Of a stretch of DNA of 64,000 nt, positions 12,122-59,932 are shown one piece after another. Location: the NCBI GenBank assembly GCA_028704015.1, contig JAQVLT010000001.1, forward strand, positions 39,484 through 103,483. Direction: 5' to 3'. The position numbers and the translations under genes are program-made. The notes below the pieces were generated by a model. The model was not told the origin of the DNA. It made no database searches and was given only the letters and a program-made list of their open reading frames with translations. This stretch comes from Patescibacteria group bacterium. GTDB lineage: Bacteria > Patescibacteriota > Patescibacteriia > Patescibacteriales > JAQVLT01. Each line of letters opens with the position of its first letter. Positions within the stretch are counted from its first letter, which is position 1.

Positions 12122-12343
12122 ATGGAAGAAATAATAAACGAAATTATTGCCTTGACTAAAAAGAAAATGCGTGAACAAGGAGGCTATGACAGAGATGCCT
12201 ACAAACAATTTGTGGAAGAAACAATTGAATATTATCTTGAGAAAGGAAAATTAGACGATGACGAAAACTTAGAACTCCTGGAAACTGAAATTCTAGAACG
12301 CTGGGACAATATCAAAGAAACGTTGGCCAACGAAAATATATAA
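12122..12343 (+). CDS. small acidic hypothetical protein
   Basis: ATG at 12122 (MEEIINEI...). The track start TTG at 12008 lies in AT-rich spacer. Confidence 0.4.
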   Translation: MEEIINEIIALTKKKMREQGGYDRDAYKQFVEETIEYYLEKGKLDDDENLELLETEILERWDNIKETLANENI

Positions 12344-19222: not shown

Positions 19223-19610
19223 TGGTGGAGATGGCGGGAGTTGAACCCGCGTCTAATAAGTGCCTAAATCTAATTTTACAAGCTTAAACTGGTTTAAAAT
19301 TTAACTAAATTTATCAAAGCCAGGCAAAAGTAAATCTAGCGATCCTTTATTGCTTTCAATTCGCTGTCAAAGGCGGACCGCGAATCTATCCTTATGGTTG
19401 ACACCCGGATCCGGTTATAAGGAGTCTCCGGTCGGATGGTTGCGGCTATTAAGCGGCAACTGGCGCAAAGGCTGGCATGCTAAAAGCAAGCTTTACTTTG
19501 CTAACTAAGTTTTTTGCACTTAGAATTTTGCAAGCTACAGTTTACGTGACAGCTTGCCCGCACGGCCTGAATAAATGTAAGCGATCTTATTATCGATGCC
19601 TAGCATCCCC
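19223..19610 (-). ncRNA. ssrA: tmRNA (ssrA)
   Basis: 5' GGGGATGCTAGGCATCGA and 3' GCGGGTTCAACTCCCGCCATCTCCACCA. Internal reading frame ends ..PVAA-TAA-TAG. smpB is adjacent. Confidence 0.9.
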
Positions 19611-31157: not shown

Positions 31158-32777
31158 TTATTGAAATGATTGATTATAAAAAAAAGAGCCATGAAGCTCA
31201 TTTTTCCATTTAGGGGTGGCTACTGGGCAATGACCCAACACTTTCATTGACGAAAGCATAATTTTGAATTCGTCGTGCGGTTCAATGCCCACCACTTTTT
31301 TATCTTTAACCCAAACTCTTTTAATTATTAGTCTTACCCAATCCCTTCTTTCATCGTCGCCTATATCCGCTTTCCATAAGGTTTTGAAGTCTCTTAAAAA
31401 ATTATCAACTTTTTTCATCGCCCGTTCTTTATTCGCTTTAAAACTACCAGCCATTAAAACTCCAATGCTTTTATATTTTCTCAATTCCTCCTCAATCTCG
31501 CCGAGTTGCAACAAATAATCATCATTGCTAATCTCATCGGTATTGTCGTATTTGAAATTTAGTTTTCTCTTTTTAGCCAAAAGATTTTTAACTATTTGCA
31601 TTTCCACTGAATCGTCTTGAAAGCTATCAAATATTTCAGACGCCTTTTTTAGCGTATCTCTTATTATATCCTCTGAAACCTTAACGCAACCCATATAATT
31701 TAAAACTTGCTTGTCTATTATATCGCAGGGAACATTGGGCTGATTGCACGCTTTGGCTTCTCGCTTAAACTTACAAGTATAATAATATACTTCTTTATTT
31801 TTCCTGTCTATTTGCGTGTGGCAATACATTTTAGGGATAAAATTATTGGTTTTTTGTTCTTCTCTACCTTTCATATGCTTAACGCAATGGAAGCAATAGA
31901 CTAAACCTTGCAGCAAATAGAATCTATGTTTTGCCGTTGGCCGTCCGCAGGTATGCGATTTTTCGCTAATGATTTCTTGGACTTTCTCAAATATCTCCGT
32001 ATTTATAATCGCTTTATGCCCGCCTTTAACATTGGGGCAATCACGTCTGGGAGAAACAACTAATCCTAAATAAACTTTATTTTTCAAAATATCTTTTATT
32101 GAGCTAACCGTGAAAGGATTTTTATGTTTCGTTTTTAACCCTTTATCGTTTAAATATTTAGCCAAACTGGAAAAGGAATATTTGTTAGAGGCATAGAGTT
32201 TAAAAATCTCTTTTACTACTTTTACTTCAACTTCATCAATAAACAAATCTTTGGTGTTGCCTTTCTTTTTACAATAACCTAGGGGTGGATTGCCAAGACA
32301 AAATCCTTGTCGTCTCTTTTCTGAAAAAGCTTTCCTCATCCAAAAGCTTAATTGGCGACTGTAGTGTTCATCGAAAACCTCGTGGATTGTTTCGTTTAAA
32401 AAAACGTGCGGACTACTTGAATCGCCGAAATCTTGGCTGACAAATAACACTTCTATTCCCAGTTTATTACGAAGTAATTTCTTGTAATGTTGAGCTTCTT
32501 CAATGTTACGCGCGAAGCGGGAAGTATGAAATACTAAAATTACTTGAAATTTTCCTTCCATGGCGTCGCTTATCATTTGGTTAAAGGAATCTCGCTTTTC
32601 CGCTGAAGTTCCTGAAACCAAATCTTTGTAAAAACCAATCAGCTCAATATTATGTTTCTTAGCATAGGCGCGAATATCATTCTCTTGTTTTTGAGGCGAG
32701 AAGCCCTTGTCTTGGCTTTCGGTAGATTCTCTGATATAAAAGACTCCTAAACGCTTTTTTTCTTTAATTTCTTCCAT
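31158..32777 (-). CDS. large serine recombinase (resolvase/invertase N-domain, recombinase domain, zinc ribbon)
   Basis: GVFYIRESTESQ (catalytic Ser), VLVFHTSRFARN, Cys clusters CFHC...CKFK..C. ATG at 32777. The 3' end runs across the 14-nt tRNA-His-derived repeat. Confidence 0.85.
   Translation of the reverse strand: MEEIKEKKRLGVFYIRESTESQDKGFSPQKQENDIRAYAKKHNIELIGFYKDLVSGTSAEKRDSFNQMISDAMEGKFQVILVFHTSRFARNIEEAQHYKKLLRNKLGIEVLFVSQDFGDSSSPHVFLNETIHEVFDEHYSRQLSFWMRKAFSEKRRQGFCLGNPPLGYCKKKGNTKDLFIDEVEVKVVKEIFKLYASNKYSFSSLAKYLNDKGLKTKHKNPFTVSSIKDILKNKVYLGLVVSPRRDCPNVKGGHKAIINTEIFEKVQEIISEKSHTCGRPTAKHRFYLLQGLVYCFHCVKHMKGREEQKTNNFIPKMYCHTQIDRKNKEVYYYTCKFKREAKACNQPNVPCDIIDKQVLNYMGCVKVSEDIIRDTLKKASEIFDSFQDDSVEMQIVKNLLAKKRKLNFKYDNTDEISNDDYLLQLGEIEEELRKYKSIGVLMAGSFKANKERAMKKVDNFLRDFKTLWKADIGDDERRDWVRLIIKRVWVKDKKVVGIEPHDEFKIMLSSMKVLGHCPVATPKWKNELHGSFFYNQSFQ
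31214..31227. repeat. direct repeat gggtggctactggg, left copy (displaced tRNA-His 3' end)
   Basis: Identical 14-mer at 42306-42319. The next ~11 nt still resemble a T-arm. Confidence 0.85.
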
Positions 32778-32863
32778 AAATTTTAAGTTAATTATATATA
32801 AATATATTATAAAATGTTTTGGGATATTCCACAAGCAAAATTATGCTAACATTAGGTAAAAAT

Positions 32864-32892
32864 TTGACATTATGTTAACACGAAATTATAAT
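32864..32892 (+). promoter_or_regulatory. consensus sigma70-type promoter, divergent from the recombinase gene
   Basis: TTGACA (32864-32869), 17-nt spacer, TATAAT (32887-32892). Confidence 0.65.
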
Positions 32893-32911
32893 AAAAATAA
32901 GCCTGATATTT

Positions 32912-33058
32912 ATGAAAATAAACATCAAATTATTTTTAGAAGCACTAAATATTAATCGTAAAGAAGTAAGCGAAGTGATTCAACTTTCGCCAAATTTAGT
33001 TAAAGTAGTTTGGGCGGACGGGATGAGCCAAAAGTTTAAAGTAAGCAAAATTATTTAG
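32912..33058 (+). CDS. 48-aa ORF downstream of the consensus promoter (possible Xis/RDF-like or regulator)
   Basis: MKINIKLFLEALNINRKEVSEVIQLSPNLVKVVWADGMSQKFKVSKII; a helix-turn-helix-like middle. Below the track length cut-off. Confidence 0.35.
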   Translation: MKINIKLFLEALNINRKEVSEVIQLSPNLVKVVWADGMSQKFKVSKII

Positions 33059-33061
33059 CAA

Positions 33062-33562
33062 TTAAATTCCCAGCAGTTGCTTTTTCTTTGTTTGAAATTC
33101 CTCCTCGGTAATAATTCCCCGGTTTTTCATATCAGCCAATTTTTCTATTTCGTCATAATTACTACCTGATTTATTGTCTTTGCCTAATCTTGCGTCTTCT
33201 ATAATCTTCTCCCATGACCTAAAAAACGGCTCGGCTATTTTATCTAAATGTCCTAGAACGAGTCCATTTACATAAGAACGGCGTTCTATTGTTTTAGTTC
33301 TATTTTTGCCTTCTTCGTTGTACGAAATATCTAAAAAATCATAACCAGCCATAACTCCCTTTTTTGCTCTCACGTTTGTTATATTTTTAAGAGGGATATT
33401 AAATATTTTTTTACTAAGGCAAAGAAAGTAAATTTCATTTTGCGTTAAAACTAAACTGCCTTTCTTTTTTCCAAACAATTTTCCATTGTCATAAATTAGA
33501 TTAGATTCTTTTTTGATTATTTTTTCATCCTGCATATGTTTAATTATTTTATAACTTACCAC
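33062..33562 (-). CDS. PH-like (bPH/GRAM-type) plus SHOCT domain protein
   Basis: C-terminal LADMKNRGIITEEEFQTKKKQLLGI is a SHOCT signature. Start ambiguous: GTG at 33562 or ATG at 33535. Confidence 0.5.
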   Translation of the reverse strand: MVSYKIIKHMQDEKIIKKESNLIYDNGKLFGKKKGSLVLTQNEIYFLCLSKKIFNIPLKNITNVRAKKGVMAGYDFLDISYNEEGKNRTKTIERRSYVNGLVLGHLDKIAEPFFRSWEKIIEDARLGKDNKSGSNYDEIEKLADMKNRGIITEEEFQTKKKQLLGI

Positions 33563-34586
33563 CCATCGCTTGATAAGCGTTTAAAACATTTTCTAATGAC
33601 GTCTTTTCTGCTTCTGTAATTACACGGTCTTTATAGTAATCTTTGCCCTGATATCTTATCTTTGACTCTTTTGATTCTATTATTAATTTTGCAATTGCTA
33701 TCGCCATTGAATCCGCCTTTTCATCAGACCACTCCCAAACGGTATTTGAATTATCTCGTTTTATTTCGCTTGGAACATAATCAGTAGTTACATCGAAAAT
33801 TTTAAATATATAACGATTTATAAATAACCAATCTCCCCCGGCATAGCTCACTCTAAAACGAAGTGTCGGCACGTTCTCTTTGTTTACGCCAAAATACATA
33901 CTGACATTATTTGTATTGCGAGTCTGTGGTGTGTTTTGGTCATAATACCAAATAATGCCTTGCATATCATCAACCTCTTTTACCATTTTGCTTAAAGCAA
34001 TTTGTCTTTCTTTTTCTTCCGCCTCGGCCTTAGCTTTATTTTCCGCTTCTTGAGCTTCTTTCTTTTTTTGAGCGATTGCTTTTTCTTCTTCCGTTAATTC
34101 TCTTGAGATAATTATATTATCACTTTTATTTTTATTCCGGTAGCTGGCGAATAGACTGATTTTGTTTTCTCCTTGGTTTAAAGAAATTTGGCGAGAAAAA
34201 TGACCACCTTCAATTGCCACTTGCTCTCCGTTAATTTTCAAAGTAGCGTCCACTGGATTTATTGTGCCACTAATTGTAATTTGGTCGCTAAAGACATTCT
34301 TTTCGTGATTTTCTATGGTGATAATAGGGGTTGGAGAGCTAACATCTTTTATTATCGATATCGTAGGTGATATCATCATCAATCCTATAATTGAGATAAT
34401 AATTATTTTTATCTTTTTATTTATTTTTTCGCTTCTCCAAACATAAAAACCAATAACAATAAATATCGCCATTGCGAATAGCTTCGCCATTACATTATTT
34501 AACGATGGGAAAATAGTTCCTATTAAACCCAGCAAGAAGAAACCGATAAAGAAAATACCGACTCCTTTTAAGATTTTTTTGGTCAT
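33549..34586 (-). CDS. membrane-anchored protein with Ig-like and coiled-coil segments, hypothetical
   Basis: Three N-terminal TM helices, a beta-rich ITISGTINPVDATLKING segment and a KKKEAQEAENKAKAEAEEKE coil. Confidence 0.4.
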   Translation of the reverse strand: MTKKILKGVGIFFIGFFLLGLIGTIFPSLNNVMAKLFAMAIFIVIGFYVWRSEKINKKIKIIIISIIGLMMISPTISIIKDVSSPTPIITIENHEKNVFSDQITISGTINPVDATLKINGEQVAIEGGHFSRQISLNQGENKISLFASYRNKNKSDNIIISRELTEEEKAIAQKKKEAQEAENKAKAEAEEKERQIALSKMVKEVDDMQGIIWYYDQNTPQTRNTNNVSMYFGVNKENVPTLRFRVSYAGGDWLFINRYIFKIFDVTTDYVPSEIKRDNSNTVWEWSDEKADSMAIAIAKLIIESKESKIRYQGKDYYKDRVITEAEKTSLENVLNAYQAMGGKL

Positions 34587-34944
34587 ACTTTTTATAATTA
34601 AATAAATAAAATTAATTTTTTCCCACGCAAAAGGCCTCCCAACATAGTTTCATTACCCTTTCGGGCAATGGCATAGACAGCAAAAACTAGTCAGGAGACC
34701 ATCTCCGCTGTCTATGTCTTTTTAACCATGCCCAACGCACGTTGGGTTTAGGTCTAAATTTTCTCAAATTAATTATATTATAAAGCTACTGAAAAATAAA
34801 GACCTAATCCAACTTCGCCCCTAAATTAGCCAATTTTTAAAGTTTTCAATGAGCATATAATTTATTACCCGTTTTCCCTGAAAATCTGTCTAAGGGGAGA
34901 TTTTGCGGTTTTAGGGTATTTCTAGACAACGGACTTATAATGCA

Positions 34945-36087
34945 TTATAAGTCGGCGTTGAAAATCCAATTTTCTTCAATAATTTTATTTAACTTGGCAT
35001 TGTAGAATAACAGCTTGCTTTCAGAATTACTATATTCTGGCTTCAAATAATTCGTAATAATTTGATCGCTTTTTAAAAATATGACTTCCGGCCTATACGC
35101 TTTTTTTGCCATATCAATACATTTTTCTAAATTTTCTCGCGAGACTAATTCTGAAGGAATGCGAATTACTGCAAAACCTTCTGTGGTTAGGCATAAATTA
35201 GCTATCCTGTCCCTTTCAATGTTTTCTTCTATTTTTCCATGAAAATATTCGCTGTCTATTTGGAGTATTATTGGATATTTTGCGTCTTTCAAACGTAAAC
35301 AAAAATCAACGATGTACCCAATAAAATATTTTTTGTCTCTAAATATTTTTATTCCGAGCTGTTCCTGAATCATGTCTAGCCCCATTTCTTTAAGCAACTG
35401 CCTAGTTAATATTTCGGCCCGTGTTCTTTTAGGATTTTTTACGCCTGCTTCAATTCTTTTTTCACTTATCTTTAATTTTGTACTTTCCTGGCAAGGGGTG
35501 CCTTTTCTATTTTTTTGTCGATTTGCTTCTCTGAAACAATTCTTTATGTTTTGCCTAGATTTATTTCTTGCGCTTCTTAAAATCGTAAAATTTCTTCTTC
35601 TGATATAGCGAAGCTCTTTGTTTATAGGTATGCCCCTCCTTTTAAATAAACTAGTAACAGCTCCCGCGGTCACGCCAAATCGTTCAGCTATCTGAATAAT
35701 ACTTAACCCCTCTTTTTTATACATTTTTTCTAGCGCTTCTTTTGTTTTTAATTCGGCATTTCCTTTTTTAAATTTTAATTCAGCTGGTTTTTTTATACCA
35801 AATTTTTTTAGTGCTTTATTAATTTTGCTTGCCGATAAATTAAATTCTTTCATAATATCGGGGGCTGTTTTTTTTAGGATAATATAATTTTTTTCTAAAA
35901 ATTCTTTTGTTAAAGGTTTCTGAAATTCAGACTCTCGGCTAAATTCTAGATTTTTAATCTTTTTAATCCCATATTTTTTAAGCTCCTTTTCTATTTCTTT
36001 ACCAGACGCCCCCGTTTCTTCCGATATTTGTTTAATGGTTTTATTTTTATTCAGATAATTCTCTGATAAATACTCTTTGGTAATCAT
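34945..36087 (-). CDS. multi-HTH protein with C-terminal DUF559/Vsr-like PD-(D/E)XK endonuclease domain
   Basis: Three repeats of the I(S/A)E..G.S...I.K.LKK(Y/F)GIKK type, then VDFCL...ILQIDSEYFHG...RDR...GFAVIRIP. Confidence 0.5.
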   Translation of the reverse strand: MITKEYLSENYLNKNKTIKQISEETGASGKEIEKELKKYGIKKIKNLEFSRESEFQKPLTKEFLEKNYIILKKTAPDIMKEFNLSASKINKALKKFGIKKPAELKFKKGNAELKTKEALEKMYKKEGLSIIQIAERFGVTAGAVTSLFKRRGIPINKELRYIRRRNFTILRSARNKSRQNIKNCFREANRQKNRKGTPCQESTKLKISEKRIEAGVKNPKRTRAEILTRQLLKEMGLDMIQEQLGIKIFRDKKYFIGYIVDFCLRLKDAKYPIILQIDSEYFHGKIEENIERDRIANLCLTTEGFAVIRIPSELVSRENLEKCIDMAKKAYRPEVIFLKSDQIITNYLKPEYSNSESKLLFYNAKLNKIIEENWIFNADL

Positions 36088-36136
36088 AGATTTATTTTTG
36101 TTCTTTTCTGAAAAAGCGTGGCATTTTAAGTTATTT

Positions 36137-36820
36137 TTACCGCGTTTTTTCAGAAAAGAACATTGCGTTTAAAATTGTTAAATAGATGACATCTTGGCCA
36201 GCCTTTTGTTCGGTTACGATATAGATGTCAGACACAGTATTACCAGCATAAGTGGTAGTGTCATCGGCGATAGCAAAGGTCGGGATAATTGGCAATTTAC
36301 CTACCATTGATTGATAGAAGTTTACATCAATACCAGTAGATACAGAGTTAGTTTGGTCTAGGTTAACTCTTACATCACCAGCTAAAGACTGATTAATAGC
36401 TCTCTTCATTCCATAGGAACAATAGATAGCAGTCGGTTTAGCATTGTAAGTTTTAACGATATTGGCAATCTCTTTTTCTATTAAATCAGTTCTAAAACCA
36501 AGAGCATTGTTATTATCATCAGTGACGTTAGTGGTGATAAGAGTTTTCAAGCCGTCAAACTGTAATGCAGATACACCAGAGTTACCAGTGATGATGAATT
36601 GCTCTTCGTCTTGGATGGTTTCTCTAATAGCGATTTCAGTTTGCTCTGCTTCTTGGTCCATAAAGGACTTGCCAGCGGCTAACATTCTATCAGTGATAGA
36701 TTTGGTTTTACCCAATTCTTTATACACCGCAGAACGCCTTACATAGGTAGAAGCGCCTTCAGTCGGAGTGCCGCCTTCTGCGAAAGGAGCATTACCTACT
36801 CCGATAGCAGTTAGATTCAA
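36137..36820 (-). pseudogene. fragment of an HK97-fold phage major capsid protein gene
   Basis: No ATG; the track M is a TTG inside a longer frame. FAEGGTPTEG...SITDRML...EQFIITGNS..FDGLKTLIT resembles the middle of a capsid protein. The C-terminus ends in unrelated hairpin sequence. Confidence 0.45.
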
Positions 36821-37036
36821 GGCGGTTCTTTTGGTTTATCGTCTAAAAGGTGAGGATTCTTGCGTATTAATTCGCAAAAGAATTCTGCTAGTTTGTTGAC
36901 TGTCTGCTCGCTATAATTTTCATTTGTTTTTAGATTGTTTAAATTGTTCATTTCCCAAAAATAAAAAATAGTCATTGCAAGACTATTTTAAATTAATGGG
37001 CATTCATAAAATTCATATGATATTCATATGAATCTT

Positions 37037-37732
37037 TTAATGGATATACTTAGGATTTATTCTTACTTTTTTCATATCATATTTAAGAAAATCATTTATA
37101 GCTGTTTCTCTGGCTATGCTTTGATTTATGTTATTTGCTTTACCATTGAAGCGCTTAAGTAGTGATTCCTTTTCTCTTTTTTCGGGTAAGCTAGCATAAT
37201 ACTCAGGTTCCCATTTATTTTGGATGTCTGCGTAAAAGCATTCTTGTTGGGGGTCTTTAAATAGTTCCGCAAGCAAATCATATTGTTTAGATTTTTTTGA
37301 GAAATCAATTTTTTTTCCAGCAAAATATAAAATGTGATTTTTTTCATCAAATCGAGGACTGTGCTTAGTTATAACTGAAGTAGGGTCGTTTTTTTTAATA
37401 AGAACATCATAATTTTTATAAAAATCCTTCGTCAGAATTATATTATAATTTGAATACTCTTTTAAATTTTCAAACGGCATTACAATATCCATCGTGGAAA
37501 AATTTTCTAGCCATTCATCTGAAACCCTAATTTCTTCCTTTATAATATTTTCCTTCTTTAAGTTTCGAATTATATCTTTTAGATACCTTCTCTCTATGTT
37601 TAAATTTTGTAGTAACTCCGGGGTGATTGGAATTATTTTTTTCTCTATTGATGTGCCGATGGTAAATAAGTCAACTTCTTTTTTGAGAAACTTGAGGAAA
37701 ACGCATAAATCTATTTTAATTTCATCTTTCAT
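37037..37732 (-). CDS. hypothetical protein, possible C-terminal OmpR-type winged helix (4th gene of the RT operon)
   Basis: KKIDFSKKSKQYDLLAELFKDPQQECFYADIQNKW resembles trans_reg_C. Its start lies 2 nt after the HNH stop. Confidence 0.4.
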   Translation of the reverse strand: MKDEIKIDLCVFLKFLKKEVDLFTIGTSIEKKIIPITPELLQNLNIERRYLKDIIRNLKKENIIKEEIRVSDEWLENFSTMDIVMPFENLKEYSNYNIILTKDFYKNYDVLIKKNDPTSVITKHSPRFDEKNHILYFAGKKIDFSKKSKQYDLLAELFKDPQQECFYADIQNKWEPEYYASLPEKREKESLLKRFNGKANNINQSIARETAINDFLKYDMKKVRINPKYIH

Positions 37733-37734
37733 AC

Positions 37735-38469
37735 TTATTGAATAGAATTAATTTCACTAAATTTTAATATATAAAAATTGGCAATCATTGAGCCATTTTC
37801 TAAGATACTTCTCCTTCTTTCCATGTCGAACATTATTTTTACAAAAAGATAATTAAACTCAAAAAAAGCAAATTCCTTGTCGTCTTCGCAAGTTCTTATA
37901 AAACGATAACTCATACCAGCTTCTATTGACTTTGAGTTTGATCCTAGTAAAAGATAACCACCAAAATCTTTTTTTCCTAAAATAATATCTCTGATTTCAT
38001 CAAATCTTGGTGATAATGCTAATACGGCGCCATAATCTAAATATATAAGTTCCAAGGCAATTTTATACAACGATCGTGATATTAATTTTAAATTTTTACT
38101 ATCCATTTTTTTCTTTCCGAAAAAATTTAGTTTGCAACCATTTATAGTTTGTGCGAAATCACCTTTATTCTTTCTTTTTAATTTTACTTCTATATCAGCC
38201 CCTGAGGAATTTTTAAAATCAATGGTGCTAAAATTTGCTGTAGGAATCTTGCCAGACTTTGATTTTATGCCATAAATTGTTCTCTGAAACAATATAGGGT
38301 CAAAATTTACTAAAATACTATCTAATAATGATAAAGTTTCATTATTACATTTGTCGCATACTACTCCTTTAGGTAAAATTTTTTCTTTATTTCCTAAGGA
38401 TTCTGGAAAAATATGCTCTACGCTTGAGAATAAATTTTTTGTGTTTTTGCAAAATAAACAAATCCCCAT
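37735..38469 (-). CDS. HNH endonuclease domain protein (3rd gene of the RT operon)
   Basis: CLFCKN...SVEHIFPESLGN...VVCDKCNN at the N-terminus. Confidence 0.7.
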   Translation of the reverse strand: MGICLFCKNTKNLFSSVEHIFPESLGNKEKILPKGVVCDKCNNETLSLLDSILVNFDPILFQRTIYGIKSKSGKIPTANFSTIDFKNSSGADIEVKLKRKNKGDFAQTINGCKLNFFGKKKMDSKNLKLISRSLYKIALELIYLDYGAVLALSPRFDEIRDIILGKKDFGGYLLLGSNSKSIEAGMSYRFIRTCEDDKEFAFFEFNYLFVKIMFDMERRRSILENGSMIANFYILKFSEINSIQ

Positions 38470-38493
38470 AGATTTATAGTATATTTTTGTTAT

Positions 38494-39579
38494 TTATTTT
38501 CCCCTAACTAGGTCTATTTCTGCCTGAATTTGTTTGTCCAAATCTCTAGCTGCTTCCTCAAAAACGTCAGAAATCATCTTTAGTTCTGTCATGATTGTGA
38601 TATATTTTTCTAAGGCTTTACTTTCAGAAAGATTTGTGATCAGGTTCGCCTGATTATTTATTTCCGATATTCTACTCTTATTAATTTTTTTCCAATTATT
38701 TTTATATTTCAAAAATAATTCTTTATATTTTTTTTCTCCACTGAGCTTGTCTTCTTCAAAAACCCTTATCTCTTTCTTGTTTATTATGTGGAATGAATAG
38801 TAAAGGCAGTATTCATTAAATTTCCAATTTTTGGCATACGGGAAAAAGATGGAAAAGTCTTTTTTTATAAAGGATATATTCTTTCTGGTTCTTTTTAGAT
38901 TTCTTTTTATATTTTCTTTTAATAATGCTTGAATATTTTTTTCTCTTTTATCAATAAAATTAAAGAATCTTTTAAAAAAATATTGCCATTCTTCTTTAGT
39001 ATTGCTATTAAACCAAGCAGAATCTCTCTGCCTTTTCCGCACAAAGGGGTCAAAATTTTTTCCTTTTAAGGAAGTTATGCCTAACCCATTGCCCCACAAT
39101 ACTTTATTTTTTGTGATTATGTTATGTAATAAGATTAAACTTATTTTAACTAATAGTTTATCTTCGTCTATCGTATGGTAAAGGTTATTTCTGACGTTGT
39201 GACAAAAGGCAATTTTTTGTTTTTCTTCCTGCGTAATAATTAATTCTTTAACGCAAGTTTTTAATAACTCTCCATGATAACATATAATTTTTTCTCTATC
39301 CTTCTGTTTATATTTTTTGTGCAAAATATAACTTAATCCGTCTCTGAAAAGTATAGCATCCATTAATGTCCTTAATTGAATTTCAATAAAATTATCCAGC
39401 AAGATAACTGCCAATCTTTGATATGCGAAATCTTTTATTCTGCCAAACCTTGAGGCTTCATTTAATTGTATTTTTAACAAAACAGTTCGCTCCATAATAA
39501 AATAAATAATTATTTTTGAAAAAGTTCTATATAGCGCTGGTGTAGTGAAGAAATATTCATTTTTGTAATTGGCAAACAA
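38494..39579 (-). CDS. HEPN-type (Rx4H; AbiD/AbiF-like) predicted RNase (2nd gene of the RT operon)
   Basis: Codons 39192-39175 read R-N-N-L-Y-H (CHNVRNNLYHT) in an alpha-helical protein. Start is TTG at 39579 or ATG at 39495. Confidence 0.55.
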   Translation of the reverse strand: MFANYKNEYFFTTPALYRTFSKIIIYFIMERTVLLKIQLNEASRFGRIKDFAYQRLAVILLDNFIEIQLRTLMDAILFRDGLSYILHKKYKQKDREKIICYHGELLKTCVKELIITQEEKQKIAFCHNVRNNLYHTIDEDKLLVKISLILLHNIITKNKVLWGNGLGITSLKGKNFDPFVRKRQRDSAWFNSNTKEEWQYFFKRFFNFIDKREKNIQALLKENIKRNLKRTRKNISFIKKDFSIFFPYAKNWKFNEYCLYYSFHIINKKEIRVFEEDKLSGEKKYKELFLKYKNNWKKINKSRISEINNQANLITNLSESKALEKYITIMTELKMISDVFEEAARDLDKQIQAEIDLVRGK

Positions 39580-39618
39580 ATAGTACGGTTCATTTAATTA
39601 AGCTCTGAAAATCACTAT

Positions 39619-41031
39619 TTATCTTATATATTGTTTAGGATAAAAGTTCGTTTTTAGATAAACCAATCTTTTTTCTATATGAGTACAATTTAAATTTAAT
39701 TTTTTATAAAATTTTAATAGGGTGTAATGATAATTGTTATGAATCAATTCGTCTGATAATTTATTAAGAAAATTAATAAATTTTATTCTCTCTCGGTTGT
39801 TAAGGTTGTTGTATATTTTTTCTAAATGCCAAGCTTTAATTTTTTGCGATTGTATAAACTTGGGTTTTAGAAATTCGTAGAATAACTTTTTAACTTTTTC
39901 GTGCTGATTTTTAGAGGTAATTAAATTTAATAACCTTATCATTAGTGAGGAGCCATCATTTTTAAGCCCCTCCTTATTTTCTAAAAGAAAATCTATGGCG
40001 TCGTCTACTATTAAATGGTTTCTCTCAGACAGAAGTAAGTGCCATTGGAATGCCATATATTGCTCAAAGTCTTTTTTGTCTTTTATATCAACTTTTTTTT
40101 GATTAATGCATAGCCCATATTGCGTTAGTGACAAAGAAGCTAAATATGCTATCTCAGCCAAATCATTTTTTGATTTTGCAAAGATTATCTGGTCGTCAGC
40201 AAATCTTAGATATTTAGCTTGGTATCTTTCACATATTGCCAACATTTGATGATCATAGTCTTGCAAATAAAAATTCGCTAATATTCTAGAGCAATCTGCT
40301 ATTTCATCTTGGGGAATGCCAACGCTTTGTTGACTGTAAAAATTATAATCCCTATTCCAAAATTTTAAAAAGTGAAAAAGTAAACTAATCACATCGTTTT
40401 GCTCTGAAGGGCAAATGCCTCTTATTTTATCTTCTAACACATCAAGTCTAATTGAATCATAAAAATTGGCAATGTCCATCTCTAAAACGTAATTATGTTT
40501 ATTTGCCTTACACGAATGAACGTATACATTATTTGTAAATTCTCCCCATGCCGCCCTCCATGCGTTTGGGTTGAATGATGTTTCCATAGGGTATTCTTCT
40601 GACATGTCTAAAGTGACAATGTCGCCGTTCGGCATTTCGTATGACTTAAACGTTTGATTGTAATATTCTATTTCTTCTCGTTCTTGAGTGCGAATTTGTC
40701 CCCCAAGCTTCCATCCACCGTAGGTGCCAGGAGCCCTATTTCCTGATATATAATTCTCTAGCTTCTTAATACAATAAAAGTAAACACAAGTATCTCGGGG
40801 TGTAAATACTGGCACTATTCTAGAAATTGAATTCCCCTTATTAAATATAATATAACTTCTTGGTTTCTCGGGATAATAAGTTTTTTCAACTATTGAGGAA
40901 TGTAAATCACGCAAGAGTTCACGTTTATTATAGTCTTGCTCTATCGGGCAGAGGGTTTCTTTATTAATTTTTTTCCAAAACTGGCTAGTATTAACTGAAA
41001 AAATTTTATAAAAATTTTCAAAACTTTCCAT
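39619..41031 (-). CDS. reverse transcriptase, non-intron Abi/UG-like, with helical C-terminal domain (1st gene of the operon)
   Basis: RT motifs RIVPVFTPRDTCVY, MDIANFYDSI, GIPQDEIADCSRILANFYL, YLRFADDQIIF (FADD codons 40192-40203), GLCINQKK. ATG at 41031 (GTG at 41052 possible). Confidence 0.85.
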   Translation of the reverse strand: MESFENFYKIFSVNTSQFWKKINKETLCPIEQDYNKRELLRDLHSSIVEKTYYPEKPRSYIIFNKGNSISRIVPVFTPRDTCVYFYCIKKLENYISGNRAPGTYGGWKLGGQIRTQEREEIEYYNQTFKSYEMPNGDIVTLDMSEEYPMETSFNPNAWRAAWGEFTNNVYVHSCKANKHNYVLEMDIANFYDSIRLDVLEDKIRGICPSEQNDVISLLFHFLKFWNRDYNFYSQQSVGIPQDEIADCSRILANFYLQDYDHQMLAICERYQAKYLRFADDQIIFAKSKNDLAEIAYLASLSLTQYGLCINQKKVDIKDKKDFEQYMAFQWHLLLSERNHLIVDDAIDFLLENKEGLKNDGSSLMIRLLNLITSKNQHEKVKKLFYEFLKPKFIQSQKIKAWHLEKIYNNLNNRERIKFINFLNKLSDELIHNNYHYTLLKFYKKLNLNCTHIEKRLVYLKTNFYPKQYIR

Positions 41032-41153
41032 CGTGTTGGCGAAAATTAGCACGCGGTAGTGGTTGCCACGTCTAAATTATAATTAGTCAATTCTGCTTTT
41101 AATTTTGCACCTTTTATTATTAAAGTCAACTGTAAATTAGATTTTTACATATT

Positions 41154-41178
41154 GCAAAAACACCCCCGAAAAGGTGTT
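41154..41178 (-). terminator. rho-independent terminator separating ORF 41215-42150 from the RT operon
   Basis: aacacc/ggtgtt stem followed by a T-run on the minus strand. Confidence 0.6.
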
Positions 41179-41214
41179 CTTAATGTCGGTAGATTACAGA
41201 TAGAGCGAGTTCAA

Positions 41215-42150
41215 CTAGAACTCCATTTGTTTTGGTTTTTCAAACGGCATGTATTCTGTAACCAACTTAATAGAATAAGAAGATGCGATTTTATTGTTGG
41301 AGTCCTTTTTTTGCTTTATTTCTAAATCAACTTTTAAAACATCCTCCGCGTAAAGTCTGATTTCTCCGCTGTGTAATTTTTTTAAAAATACTTCATCATC
41401 AATAGTTACTGGCCATAAGACATTATTATCTCCCATAATAAAAGAATATGCTTTTTCTTCGCCAGAATAAGAACCTCGTTTTGGTTTTAAATAAATATTT
41501 TTCAAAATTGAAATATTATCTTCAGTTTCTTCTGATAATTCCGTGTGTGCATATTTTTCAATAAACTCAATATCTTCTTTTTTAATAATTTGCTCAGTGC
41601 TATCTTTCGCAGTTATTTTAAAGCTTACCTCGGTAGTTGCTGGAAATTTGCTAAACGGTGCAACCGTGCAATTGTAATAATTGTTTTGCACCAAAGGAGA
41701 TTGGACTAGCTTGTGTTCAGCCATGCTAACTTCCAACTTTTCACCAGTTGGAGAGATATAAGTTATTGTCTCACCATTATCTTTTCTTTCAAAATTTGAA
41801 ACTATACCCCTGGTGAATTGTATGATTTTAATTAAGCCCGTAACTCCTTCTTTTGCATTCAATCCCAAAAACGATAGAAGAAGCATTAAGCTTTGCCCAT
41901 CATCATCTTTGAGATAGTTTAATAAATGAGGTACCTGTGAATGCTGAATAACAAAATCAGTTATCCAAGAACCTTCTCTGAATGGCTTAACTTTAACATC
42001 TATTTTTTGTTCGAACCCAAGAATGTTGTTTGCAGAACGAATAAGTTCGCCAAAATGCATTAAAACGGGTGCTATTTCAAAAACATCAACGCCGTCATCG
42101 GCATTAATTCCATTCAGTTTATATATTATTTGAGTTTTTGAAATTTTCAT
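41215..42150 (-). CDS. hypothetical protein (island gene, own transcription unit)
   Basis: 311-aa ORF from ATG at 42150 (MKISKTQ...); no motif recognised. Confidence 0.45.
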   Translation of the reverse strand: MKISKTQIIYKLNGINADDGVDVFEIAPVLMHFGELIRSANNILGFEQKIDVKVKPFREGSWITDFVIQHSQVPHLLNYLKDDDGQSLMLLLSFLGLNAKEGVTGLIKIIQFTRGIVSNFERKDNGETITYISPTGEKLEVSMAEHKLVQSPLVQNNYYNCTVAPFSKFPATTEVSFKITAKDSTEQIIKKEDIEFIEKYAHTELSEETEDNISILKNIYLKPKRGSYSGEEKAYSFIMGDNNVLWPVTIDDEVFLKKLHSGEIRLYAEDVLKVDLEIKQKKDSNNKIASSYSIKLVTEYMPFEKPKQMEF

Positions 42151-42270
42151 ATTCAAATATATTATAACATATAACTAAATGAATAGCACTGGCGAAAACA
42201 AAATTTTTTAAGAGAAACACAATTTTTTATTTAATTAATAATTTTAAAGTAAACCAGTTTGTATAATACT

Positions 42271-42298
42271 AAAAACACCCCAATTAAGGGGTGTTTTT
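42271..42298. terminator. perfect bidirectional hairpin downstream of tRNA-His
   Basis: aaaaacacccc-aattaa-ggggtgttttt. Confidence 0.75.
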
Positions 42299-42305
42299 AC
42301 TTCAA

Positions 42306-42319
42306 GGGTGGCTACTGGG
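42306..42319. repeat. direct repeat gggtggctactggg, right copy (3' end of the intact tRNA-His)
   Basis: Identical to 31214-31227. Confidence 0.85.
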
Positions 42320-42379
42320 AGTTGAACCCAGGTTACTTGCGCCACAAGCAAGTGTTCTAGCCGTTGAACCATAGCCACC
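42307..42379 (-). tRNA. tRNA-His (anticodon GUG) with G-1
   Basis: G-1 plus acceptor GTGGCTA/TAGCCAC, discriminator C, anticodon loop TTGTGGC. Unusual T-loop TTCAACT. Confidence 0.85.
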
Positions 42380-42478
42380 ATGATATAATATATTTTACTT
42401 TAACTTATTAAGATACATTTCACAACCGAACAATTTAATTTCAACAATGGGGTTGTGTCGTGGAAAGTCTTTTGTCGT

Positions 42479-42542
42479 TGGGAATCGAACCCAGATCATC
42501 GGGACCACAACCCGATGTACTAACCGCTGTACTATAGCCACC
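42479..42542 (-). pseudogene. tRNA-His copy lacking the last 3'-side T-stem base and the whole 3' acceptor strand
   Basis: GGTGGCTATAGTACAGCGGTTAGTACATCGGGTTGTGGTCCCGATGATCTGGGTTCGATTCCCA, then unrelated ACGACAAAAG. No sequence pairs with the 5' acceptor. Confidence 0.8.
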
Positions 42543-42583: not shown

Positions 42584-43123
42584 CTAAATCTTATACAAAT
42601 ATATTTTGCTATTTTCTCCCAGCTCTAATATTTTTTCTGTTTTCATATTTGGTAAAATAAACTGATAGCTTACCACTAGCGTTCCCGGTTTGCACTCTTT
42701 TTTGAATTTCTCTTCCAGCTTCGCCATCATATTGGGAAATAGATAACAATAAATCACATCCGCATCTTCTAAATTTATCTTGAACATATTTTTCTTCCTG
42801 ATTTTTATTTTGCTTTTTGCCAAACTCAATTGAATTTTGGAAAAAAAATAAGGAAACGAGGAATATTCTATGCCGATACATTTTGCTCCTGGGTATCGCT
42901 CTTCAAATGCGCGCAGAAATCCGGCCTTGCCTGATCCTAATTCATAAACCGTACCGCTAAAATTCTCACCAAAATTAATATTCTCAAAAATTTTATTAAT
43001 CACATCATATTTAGTGGAAATAAATGGAGCATAGCCGCGGAAAAGCATATTAAAAAACTGAATAGCCACAAAAACAGCCAAAACTATTAATATTAAATTC
43101 AAAATTGTTAAAAAATAAAACAT
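42584..43123 (-). CDS. class I SAM-dependent methyltransferase with N-terminal TM helix
   Basis: Motif I YELGSGKAGF, then IGIEYS. Confidence 0.55.
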   Translation of the reverse strand: MFYFLTILNLILIVLAVFVAIQFFNMLFRGYAPFISTKYDVINKIFENINFGENFSGTVYELGSGKAGFLRAFEERYPGAKCIGIEYSSFPYFFSKIQLSLAKSKIKIRKKNMFKINLEDADVIYCYLFPNMMAKLEEKFKKECKPGTLVVSYQFILPNMKTEKILELGENSKIYLYKI

Positions 43124-43161
43124 AAATTTTAATTTTTTAAATTTCTAAATTTTTATACTTG

Positions 43162-43233
43162 TACGCCCGGGGGGAATCGAACCCTCATAACCAGCTTAGA
43201 AGGCTGGTGTTCTATCCATTGAACTACGGGCGC
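43162..43233 (-). tRNA. tRNA-Arg (anticodon UCU)
   Basis: Acceptor GCGCCCG/CGGGCGT, anticodon loop CTTCTAA, GGTTCGATTCC. Confidence 0.85.
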
Positions 43234-58342: not shown

Positions 58343-59826
<1,484 letters not shown>

Positions 59827-59932
59827 GTATTGAAAGTTTTTATACTTTCAATTTTTGAGTTTTATAGCTCTTAGCAAATTTTTTAAAAAAACTTGCAAAA
59901 AATATTTGAAGAAATAAATCTTCTATAATTAG

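Follow-up and report, generated by a model that had tools for sequence, protein, structure and literature searches.

The window analysed here is a stretch of 64,000 nucleotides from a Patescibacteria group bacterium (GenBank assembly GCA_028704015.1, contig JAQVLT010000001.1, positions 39,484 to 103,483), and it carries an integrated element of 11,255 bp that spans positions 31228-42478 plus one copy of a TGGG sequence shared by the two ends. A large serine recombinase gene lies at the left end of this element, an intact tRNA-His gene lies just inside the right end, and a second, truncated tRNA-His gene begins at the right junction itself. The island is compositionally foreign, with a GC content of 31.7% compared to 37.1% and 39.1% in the flanks (the lowest value among flank windows of 11.25 kb is 35.4%) and a tetranucleotide L1 distance of 0.24 compared to a maximum of 0.13 among the flank windows, a roughly two-fold difference. 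The compositional jump is located at the junctions. A first-pass annotation, made from the letters alone, had judged the interval to be more AT-rich than its surroundings, with which the GC values agree, and had placed in it a large serine recombinase, a capsid gene fragment, nuclease-like genes and a reverse transcriptase (RT) cluster, all of which are present.

The recombinase (31158..32777, minus strand) is 539 amino acids long and matches the Pfam families Resolvase (3.8e-22), Recombinase (5.6e-21) and Zn_ribbon_recom (6.4e-07), the last two above their gathering scores, as well as the integrase family phrog_95 (3e-91). It is identical to protein P0001. The motif YIRESTESQ is present, and Arg16 and Ser18 are invariant in 30 homologues. 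By these features the protein is a large serine recombinase with intact catalytic motifs, and it is predicted to catalyze recombination between an attP and an attB attachment site. Its identity to GenBank phage integrases does not exceed 27%, and matches to solved structures are limited to fragments of the catalytic domain. There are 546 homologues at E<1e-10, and every match with a source taxon name is from Patescibacteria or the candidate phyla radiation (CPR). Among the viral contigs of IMG/VR, a single-protein query returned no relative of the recombinase and an alignment query returned one distant, partial match; this near-absence from viral contigs gives no support for a recognised virus.

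The window has exactly two copies of a 14-mer, GGGTGGCTACTGGG, one at 31214-31227 and one at 42306-42319, with no third copy even when one mismatch is allowed and none in 100 shuffles. The right copy forms the 3′ terminus of the intact, minus-strand tRNA-His(GTG) (42306-42378; ARAGORN; Rfam, 64.4 bits). The first-pass annotation had reported the repeat and its relation to the intact gene, and both observations stand. What did not stand is the mode of integration that it implied, at the 3′ end of this intact gene with a 14-bp direct repeat, since the intact tRNA-His lies inside the element and it is a different tRNA-His, that of the host, that is split. This second gene was overlooked and starts one base after 42478, where the first-pass annotation had ended the element. 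A repeat scan of 30.5-43.3 kb returned AT-rich chance repeats and no better candidates for attachment sites.

The split host gene and the crossover sites

The truncated host tRNA-His (42479..42542, minus strand) extends from G-1 through T-arm position 64 and has lost the 3′ strand of the acceptor stem. It reads …GGGTTCGATTCCCA up to position 64 and then continues into unrelated sequence. Rfam recognizes a partial tRNA at 42478-42534 (39.7 bits, model positions 8-63 of 71), while ARAGORN calls no tRNA at the truncated locus or its junction in their present form, and neither junction restores a functional tRNA. The missing piece is found at the recombinase-side junction, where the left 14-mer, read on the minus strand (31214..31227, CCCAGTAGCCACCC), comprises the 3′ strand of the T-stem, the 3′ strand of the acceptor stem and C73, exactly what the truncated gene lacks. 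Beside this displaced 3′ end is the terminator of the host tRNA-His (31178..31199, minus strand), called by a terminator scan as the hairpin GAGCTTCATGGCTC followed by T8.

When the truncated piece and the left 14-mer are joined, a canonical tRNA-His results, which is identical at 74 of 74 positions to the tRNA-His of a Parcubacteria metagenome-assembled genome (MAG), locus L004. A 28-mer spanning the junction of this reconstruction, searched across one genome per species, matched five genomes, four of them Patescibacteria/CPR MAGs and one a bin labelled as an uncultured Gammaproteobacteria. The gene order of L004 is that of the right flank of the window, namely tRNA-Arg(TCT), an open reading frame (ORF) of about 180 amino acids (45% identity) and tRNA-His; in the window the flank (42584..43233, minus strand) consists of a 179-aa ORF and tRNA-Arg(TCT), in the order seen at the uninterrupted tRNA-His of L004. 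A hairpin comparable to the displaced terminator follows the intact tRNA-His of L004. Collinearity with L004 breaks exactly at window position 42478/42479. L004 was also considered as a two-sided empty site and rejected, because its left flank is not syntenic; it serves as an empty site on one side. The host gene thus now lies in two parts, with its first 64 nt at 42479-42542 and its last 10-14 nt plus terminator at 31178-31227, 11.25 kb away, and the sequence shows that the element split the host tRNA-His at T-arm positions C61-C62.

The 14-mer is common to both ends because both tRNA-His genes share the T-stem and the 3′ strand of the acceptor stem. The sequence common to the true junctions is only TGGG (31224-27 and 42479-82), with the core CC at 31226-31227 on the recombinase side and at 42481-42482 in the truncated gene. 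On the element side, arm P (31228..31247, minus strand, atgaaagtgttgggtcattg) lies within the last codons of the recombinase (…KVLGHC), and relatives retain the motif AAAGTnTTnGGTCA at the 3′ ends of their recombinase genes. Arm P′ (42461..42480, minus strand, caacgacaaaagactttcca) lies at the junction distant from the recombinase. Joined, the element-side arms read GAAAGTGTTGGGTCATTG-CC-CAACGACAAAAGACTTTC, an attP of about 40 bp in which 14 of 20 arm positions are symmetric. The predicted attP across the junction of a circular form is GAAAGTGTTGGGTCATTGCCCAACGACAAAAGACTTTCC, and the attB predicted after repair of the host gene is GATCTGGGTTCGATTCCCAGTAGCCACCCCTAAATGG. Arm symmetry of attP in three relatives is 16/20, 14/20 and 18/20, compared to only 6-7/20 for attB arms (7/20 for attB of the window). 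Across four loci, attL and attR share 2-5 nt of identity that always includes the CC, and at L036 the identity common to attL, attR and attB is exactly these two nucleotides. Palindromic arms around a 2-bp core are, as read from sequence, the signature of recombination by a serine integrase. As a serine integrase needs only a 2-bp core, the tRNA cannot be rebuilt from attP, which leaves the host gene split. The decamer after the left repeat copy, caatgaccca, which the first-pass annotation had likened to a tRNA T-arm, is real as sequence and proves to be the recombinase-binding arm of attP and to double as coding sequence for the C-terminus of the recombinase.

This anatomy bears on the arrangement that the first-pass annotation had in mind, in which an island or prophage of about 31228-42305 sits at the 3′ end of the intact tRNA-His with a 14-bp att core, and the truncated tRNA is an unrelated pseudogene. 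The repeat is exact, one copy does end an intact tRNA gene, and islands of this kind are very common (PMC7192596). The island, however, encodes no tyrosine integrase (no Phage_integrase domain), the left 14-mer falls within the ORF of a serine recombinase, and the arrangement explains neither the palindromic arms at the other pair of junctions nor a truncated tRNA-His that the 14-mer completes to a 74/74 match in a syntenic position. We regard it as very improbable. The better account, and one in which we have considerable confidence, is that the element was put into the tRNA-His gene of the host by its own large serine recombinase and carries an intact tRNA-His along.

Because the crossover falls at the end of the recombinase gene, integration changes the protein. 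The last 22 codons of the integrated gene are read from host DNA, that is from the 3′ end of the tRNA-His and its terminator, giving the tail PVATP…, while the predicted tail in an excised circle is PTTKDF… (PTTKDFPRHNPIVEIKLFGCEMYLNKLK). A C-terminal tail of the form Q-x-P-x-x-[T/A]-[P/L/Q/H], read from a tRNA-His 3′ end, is present in 92 of 113 full-length homologues, and a tail of the antisense type in another 7 of the 113. At the level of DNA, all 17 distinct recombinase 3′ ends from related loci that extend past the core, plus the window's own, show a tRNA-His-like end of the form …C[A/G]CC…. The integrated recombinase ORF crosses the terminator hairpin and T8 of the host tRNA before reaching its stop codon at 31158. 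Termination at this host terminator would give a recombinase mRNA without a stop codon, which might lower the amount of recombinase in the integrated state; in several relatives the recombinase stop codon comes directly after the tRNA end, so that this situation is not general.

The intact tRNA-His(GTG) of the element (42306..42378, minus strand, with G-1 encoded at 42379) is 56/74 (76%) identical to the host type. It is oriented like the broken gene and is set back from the junction by 100 nt on the element side, and both G-1 and C73 are present. Directly after it is a GC-rich hairpin, CACCCC-TTAATT-GGGGTG, with a T-run (42271..42299, minus strand), read by eye as a probable terminator; the terminator scanner made no call on it. 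There is no other intact tRNA-His in the window. By its position, the intact gene is cargo of the island, and it most likely replaces the lost function of the host tRNA-His.

Related loci

The relatives examined were metagenomic loci encoding homologues of the recombinase, together with contigs of individual homologues. Every locus with both ends visible (L008, L014, L030, L036 and L094) has the layout of the window, in which a tRNA-His truncated at position 62-64 is followed by an arm ending …ACTTTC, an intact tRNA-His, variable cargo, the recombinase and finally a tRNA-His 3′ fragment. In these five loci the intact tRNA-His lies between 80 bp and 4.6 kb inside the element, and the crossover core is CC at tRNA positions C61-C62, as in the window.

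The 3′ fragment beside the recombinase pairs with the 5′ acceptor strand of the truncated copy at 7 of 7 positions in the window, L014, L030 and L036 and at 6 of 7 in L008; in L094 the contig edge removes the 5′ acceptor strand of the truncated copy. The paired strands themselves vary, and are GTGGCTA/TAGCCAC in the window, GTGAGTG/CACTCAC in L014, GTGACCA/TGGTCAC in L030, GTGGCCA/TGGTCAC in L036 and GCGACCT/AGGCCGC, with its one mismatch, in L008. With the intact internal tRNA, the 3′ fragments of L008 and L030 pair at only 4 of 7 positions, and are therefore not a repeat of its 3′ end, which excludes a direct-repeat model based on that end. Insertion of the element by a tyrosine integrase at a tRNA 3′ end, with a 14-bp core, was rejected as contradicted by these two junctions.

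One further locus shows the opposite orientation. At L093 (7370-7490), the 3′ end of the recombinase adjoins a tRNA-His 5′ part that is in antisense, and GG stands in place of CC as the core. This is an inverted insertion of the same element type, as is expected if the core dinucleotide alone sets orientation, and insertions of this type explain homologue tails of the form …(E/G)S(D/N)P.

The pairs of tRNA-His genes could also have come about by local duplication or rearrangement, with the recombinase an unrelated neighbor such as an invertase or resolvase. The case for this comes from L014 and L036, where a 62-nt stretch is almost identical between the truncated and the intact copy. The copies are only ~76-80% identical in the window, L008 and L030, however, and in six independent loci the truncated copy is separated by 8-11 kb from its 3′ end, which is found precisely at the stop region of the recombinase. 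Palindromic arms with a 2-bp core are the mark of a serine integrase, and the compositional jump falls at the junctions. We give this explanation scarcely any weight, even less than the arrangement of the first-pass annotation. Local duplication was rejected as strongly disfavoured by the diverged copies, the recombinase-linked 3′ ends and the anatomy of the attachment sites.

Elements of the family may also be found inside one another. At L009 (5400-6556), the tRNA fragment beside the recombinase is the 3′ end of an element-borne tRNA-His of the L008 type, and the DNA beyond this fragment is ~80% identical to the interior of the L008 element. In L008 itself (1816-1965, 12218-12268), another remnant of a tRNA-His 3′ end lies 60 nt beyond the junction. 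These two observations suggest that elements can stack, a newcomer landing in the tRNA-His carried by a resident element.

Two variations on the recombinase were observed among the relatives. In the closest clade (L007-L010), an ORF of ~160 amino acids lies directly upstream of the full-length recombinase (e.g., L008 9953-10444). It contains the ‘Recombinase’ domain only, is 40-44% identical to part of the recombinase and is absent from the element in the window; it may be an accessory or directionality factor. A distant subfamily (31-36% identity) occurs on GC-rich metagenome contigs (loci L033-L086, e.g., L043 10001-11526), and in 34 of 52 loci its recombinase ends ~50 nt from an intact, convergent tRNA-Asp(GTC). 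This subfamily is a second tRNA-linked clade of serine integrases, one that apparently does not split the tRNA.

Cargo of the element

All genes between the recombinase and the intact tRNA-His lie on the minus strand. Nearest the recombinase are a SHOCT-domain protein (33062..33562) and a membrane protein with a Glucodextran_B-like domain (33549..34586), both assigned by domain matches, followed by a LOOT RNA (34641..34754), a structured RNA of Rfam family RF03000 that scores 62.1 bits compared to a gathering score of 46.4. This is the only LOOT in the window. A LOOT also lies close to the recombinase, no more than a few kb away, in 9 of 24 related loci, among them near-duplicates, and the neighboring genes vary (L009 5496-5628, L014 6948-7062, L024 4654-4772, L025 5-128, L026 464-600, L027 4528-4646, L029 330-446, L036 6407-6537 and L039 5954-6080). 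This recurrence suggests that LOOT is a component of these CPR elements. In a 2017 paper, as far as its main text goes, ‘LOOT’ occurs only as an author name in the reference list.

Next are a homing-endonuclease-like protein with repeated helix-turn-helix (HTH) modules and a DUF559 domain (34945..36087) and a fragment of a major capsid protein of the SU10_MCP family (36137..36820, profile positions 60-236 of 292). The two genes travel together, being adjacent in the window (34945-36820), in L009 (1939-3221) and in L039 (4279-5891), with amino acid identities between elements of 70-77% for the capsid fragment and 42-51% for the endonuclease-like gene, and the pair looks like a remnant of a capsid gene with a homing-endonuclease-like gene. 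The capsid fragment has no match among GenBank phages, and domain and family searches of the island found no terminase, portal, tail or lysis genes. The island is not a recognisable prophage. Of the two descriptions offered by the first-pass annotation, genomic island fits, while prophage remnant finds little support in a single capsid fragment and a recombinase family that is nearly absent from viral contigs.

The remaining genes are co-oriented and make up a cluster (37037-42156) where the island is richest in AT (27% GC at 37-40 kb). Its members are a hypothetical protein of 231 amino acids (37037..37732) that is shared with the elements L008 and L010, an HNH_5 endonuclease-domain protein (37735..38469, by domain match), a hypothetical protein of 361 amino acids between the HNH and RT genes (38494..39579) with no family match, an RT of the UG/Abi group UG13b (39619..41052; PADLOC RT_UG13b, 7.4e-133, profile positions 3-425 of 430; Pfam RVT_1) and a homologue of the PADLOC defence candidate PDC-S42 (41215..42156, 3.1e-29). 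A defence role for UG13b has been predicted from genomic association only (PMC9226505). The cluster is a candidate multi-gene RT defence system, with partners that lack a family assignment.

Related elements are 8-11 kb long and differ in their cargo. L008 carries an AAA_15 ATPase and a rolling-circle Rep protein, and L014 and L036 carry an SNase and an ImmA/M78 peptidase. The genes of a diversity-generating retroelement, Fic and a methylase are found in L093 and L094, and a type I restriction-modification system with Fic in L095. Judged by this cargo, the family behaves like a small integrative vehicle for genes of defence and diversification. The broader proposal of the first-pass annotation, of an integrated foreign element associated with tRNA-His whose defence-like cargo rides on a potentially mobile unit, is supported. 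Beyond the island, the window includes a full-length bacterial 16S rRNA gene (58344-59827, minus strand), which could place the host precisely within Patescibacteria, and a tmRNA gene (19223-19610, minus strand).

Mechanism, mobility and significance

In the mechanism that we propose, the recombinase would recognize an attP of ~40 bp whose left arm is formed by the last codons of its own gene, and the matching attB would be the T-arm and the 3′ acceptor strand of tRNA-His. Strand exchange would take place at the non-palindromic CC that corresponds to tRNA positions C61-C62. In the integrated state, the recombinase frame would run through the junction into the tRNA 3′ end, and in a circular form the recombinase gene, attP and tRNA-His would constitute one compact integration module. 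The tRNA carried by the element would let a recombinase that is unable to regenerate its target use an essential and conserved site. Precise excision would be expected to restore the host gene, while a host with no further tRNA-His would not survive any other deletion removing the island's tRNA end, making that end hard to lose.

Several observations weigh against this account. The sole uninterrupted site, that of L004, belongs to a distant relative, and its synteny with the window is confined to the right flank. Searches turned up no excised circle, no attP junction and no polymorphic empty site, and viral contigs gave no match for the attP-junction pattern TTTTGTCGTTGGGCAATGACCCAA or for the sequence of the element tRNA-His. 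The predicted excised form of the recombinase, of 545 amino acids, is absent from a collection of 15 billion proteins. Neither a recombination directionality factor nor transfer machinery was identified. The count of tRNA-His genes covers the 64-kb window, so that the need for the element tRNA is presumed from that interval, promoter-like matches around both tRNA-His copies are at chance level, and expression and charging of the element tRNA are predicted. In four related loci, the available 10 kb upstream of the recombinase contain no tRNA-His, and these may be longer elements or elements without the gene. In L014 and L036, the near-identity between the internal tRNA-His and the truncated host copy blurs the distinction between a foreign replacement and a local duplication or gene conversion. 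It suggests long association or gene conversion, and the 62-nt direct repeats could delete attL, fixing the element.

All near-identical assemblies carry the island at the same place. The first-pass annotation had proposed comparison with relatives that lack the island; among these assemblies no such empty variant was found. Both flank proteins for which contigs were returned, like the recombinase, lead only to island-bearing contigs, and the 247-aa ORF of the left flank is not on record. It is thus conceivable that the insertion occurred as described and is now an immobile fossil fixed in the lineage, with an inactive recombinase and an internal tRNA-His that simply became that of the host. 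The shared position in all three or four near-identical assemblies, the reduction of the capsid gene to a fragment, the failure to detect an excised form and the lack of a recognised directionality factor all fit such a fossil. Fixation is harder to reconcile with a full-length recombinase ORF that retains its catalytic residues, with intact arms at both att junctions, with a composition that is still clearly foreign and with the many diverged, intact family members at the same type of site across CPR lineages, which point to ongoing activity of the family. We consider a fossil unlikely, though it is a far more serious contender than the two explanations discussed earlier. On the proposed insertion by its own recombinase, the element may be active or fixed, and its current mobility is a prediction.

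The closest known case is the tRNA-dependent lysogeny of Fionnbharth and other mycobacteriophages of clusters K4 and L, which has been shown experimentally (Guerrero-Bustamante and Hatfull, 2024; PMC10865867). As in those phages, a host tRNA gene is hit and not rebuilt at the junction, the integrase, attP and tRNA would form one module, and a tRNA is carried by the element (tRNA-His(GTG) in the window, and likewise in L008, L014, L030, L036 and L094). The phages differ in that they use a tyrosine integrase, a common core of ~10 bp with arm-type sites and a tRNA-Lys target, and are complete temperate phages of Mycobacterium with experimental proof. Here, in contrast, the enzyme is a serine recombinase, the core is a CC in the T-arm of tRNA-His, attP lies inside the coding end of the recombinase, and the elements are 8-11 kb long, lack virion modules and reside in Patescibacteria, the evidence being that of sequence. 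Among the papers found to mention tRNA-dependent lysogeny, none appears from its title and the start of its abstract to concern serine integrases or CPR bacteria. Integration of the Lactobacillus johnsonii prophage Lj965 also fails to rebuild a tRNA gene, and the prophage encodes the cognate tRNA, as cited in that study (PMC10865867); Lj965 is a complete prophage of a Firmicute, unlike the element described here. Classical tRNA islands of the Islander type, inserted by tyrosine integrases (PMC7192596), likewise have a tRNA on one side, a displaced tRNA fragment on the other and an integrase gene at one end. In such islands attP carries the 3′ part of the tRNA, which restores the gene and leaves a direct repeat of tens of base pairs, whereas in the window nothing is restored and the repeat is an incidental homology between two tRNA-His genes.

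With the serine integrases of phages such as Bxb1, phiC31, A118 and TP901-1, the recombinase shares its domain architecture, and the short att sites share a non-palindromic, polarity-setting core of 2 bp between imperfect inverted arms, with attL and attR having only the core in common. The known phage enzymes target protein-coding genes or intergenic DNA, unlike the tRNA-His targeted here. Also unlike in those phages, attP overlaps the stop region of the integrase gene and the C-terminal tail changes on integration. In myxophage Mx8 (intP/intX) and the fusellovirus SSV1, attP lies inside the integrase gene, and the integrated and free forms encode different proteins. These integrases are tyrosine recombinases, the tRNA target is restored by sequence borne on attP, and there is no replacement tRNA. 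What the present element has in common with Mx8 and SSV1 is that integration alters the reading frame of the integrase.

Taken together, it is possible, and we put this forward tentatively, that small serine-integrase elements with a set of unusual properties form one family across the CPR. Its members would regularly break the tRNA-His gene of the host, probably the only one, at C61-C62 and replace it, so that over time the essential tRNA-His of these streamlined genomes is repeatedly swapped for copies brought by elements. The elements could stack, as L009 and L008 hint, the C-terminal tail of the recombinase would report the integrated or free state, and LOOT would be a component. The family would be a main vehicle for genes of defence and diversification in Patescibacteria, namely RTs, diversity-generating retroelements, type I restriction-modification and Fic. 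The strategy of breaking an essential tRNA gene and bringing one's own, first described in 2024 for mycobacteriophages with tyrosine integrases, would have also arisen with serine integrases, which mechanistically cannot restore their target gene and were not known to use tRNA genes. The setting is also new, as the mobile elements of Patescibacteria are poorly charted and their minimal genomes make the loss of a tRNA critical. Leads that follow include a family of serine integrases whose attP/attB pairs vary naturally, are precisely predicted and have a defined 2-bp core, and a rule for mapping the boundaries of islands that tools based on repeats of tRNA 3′ fragments would misplace. For the biology of the group, the findings would place LOOT RNA in a genomic context and give evidence that elements of this kind carry defence-type cargo in CPR bacteria.

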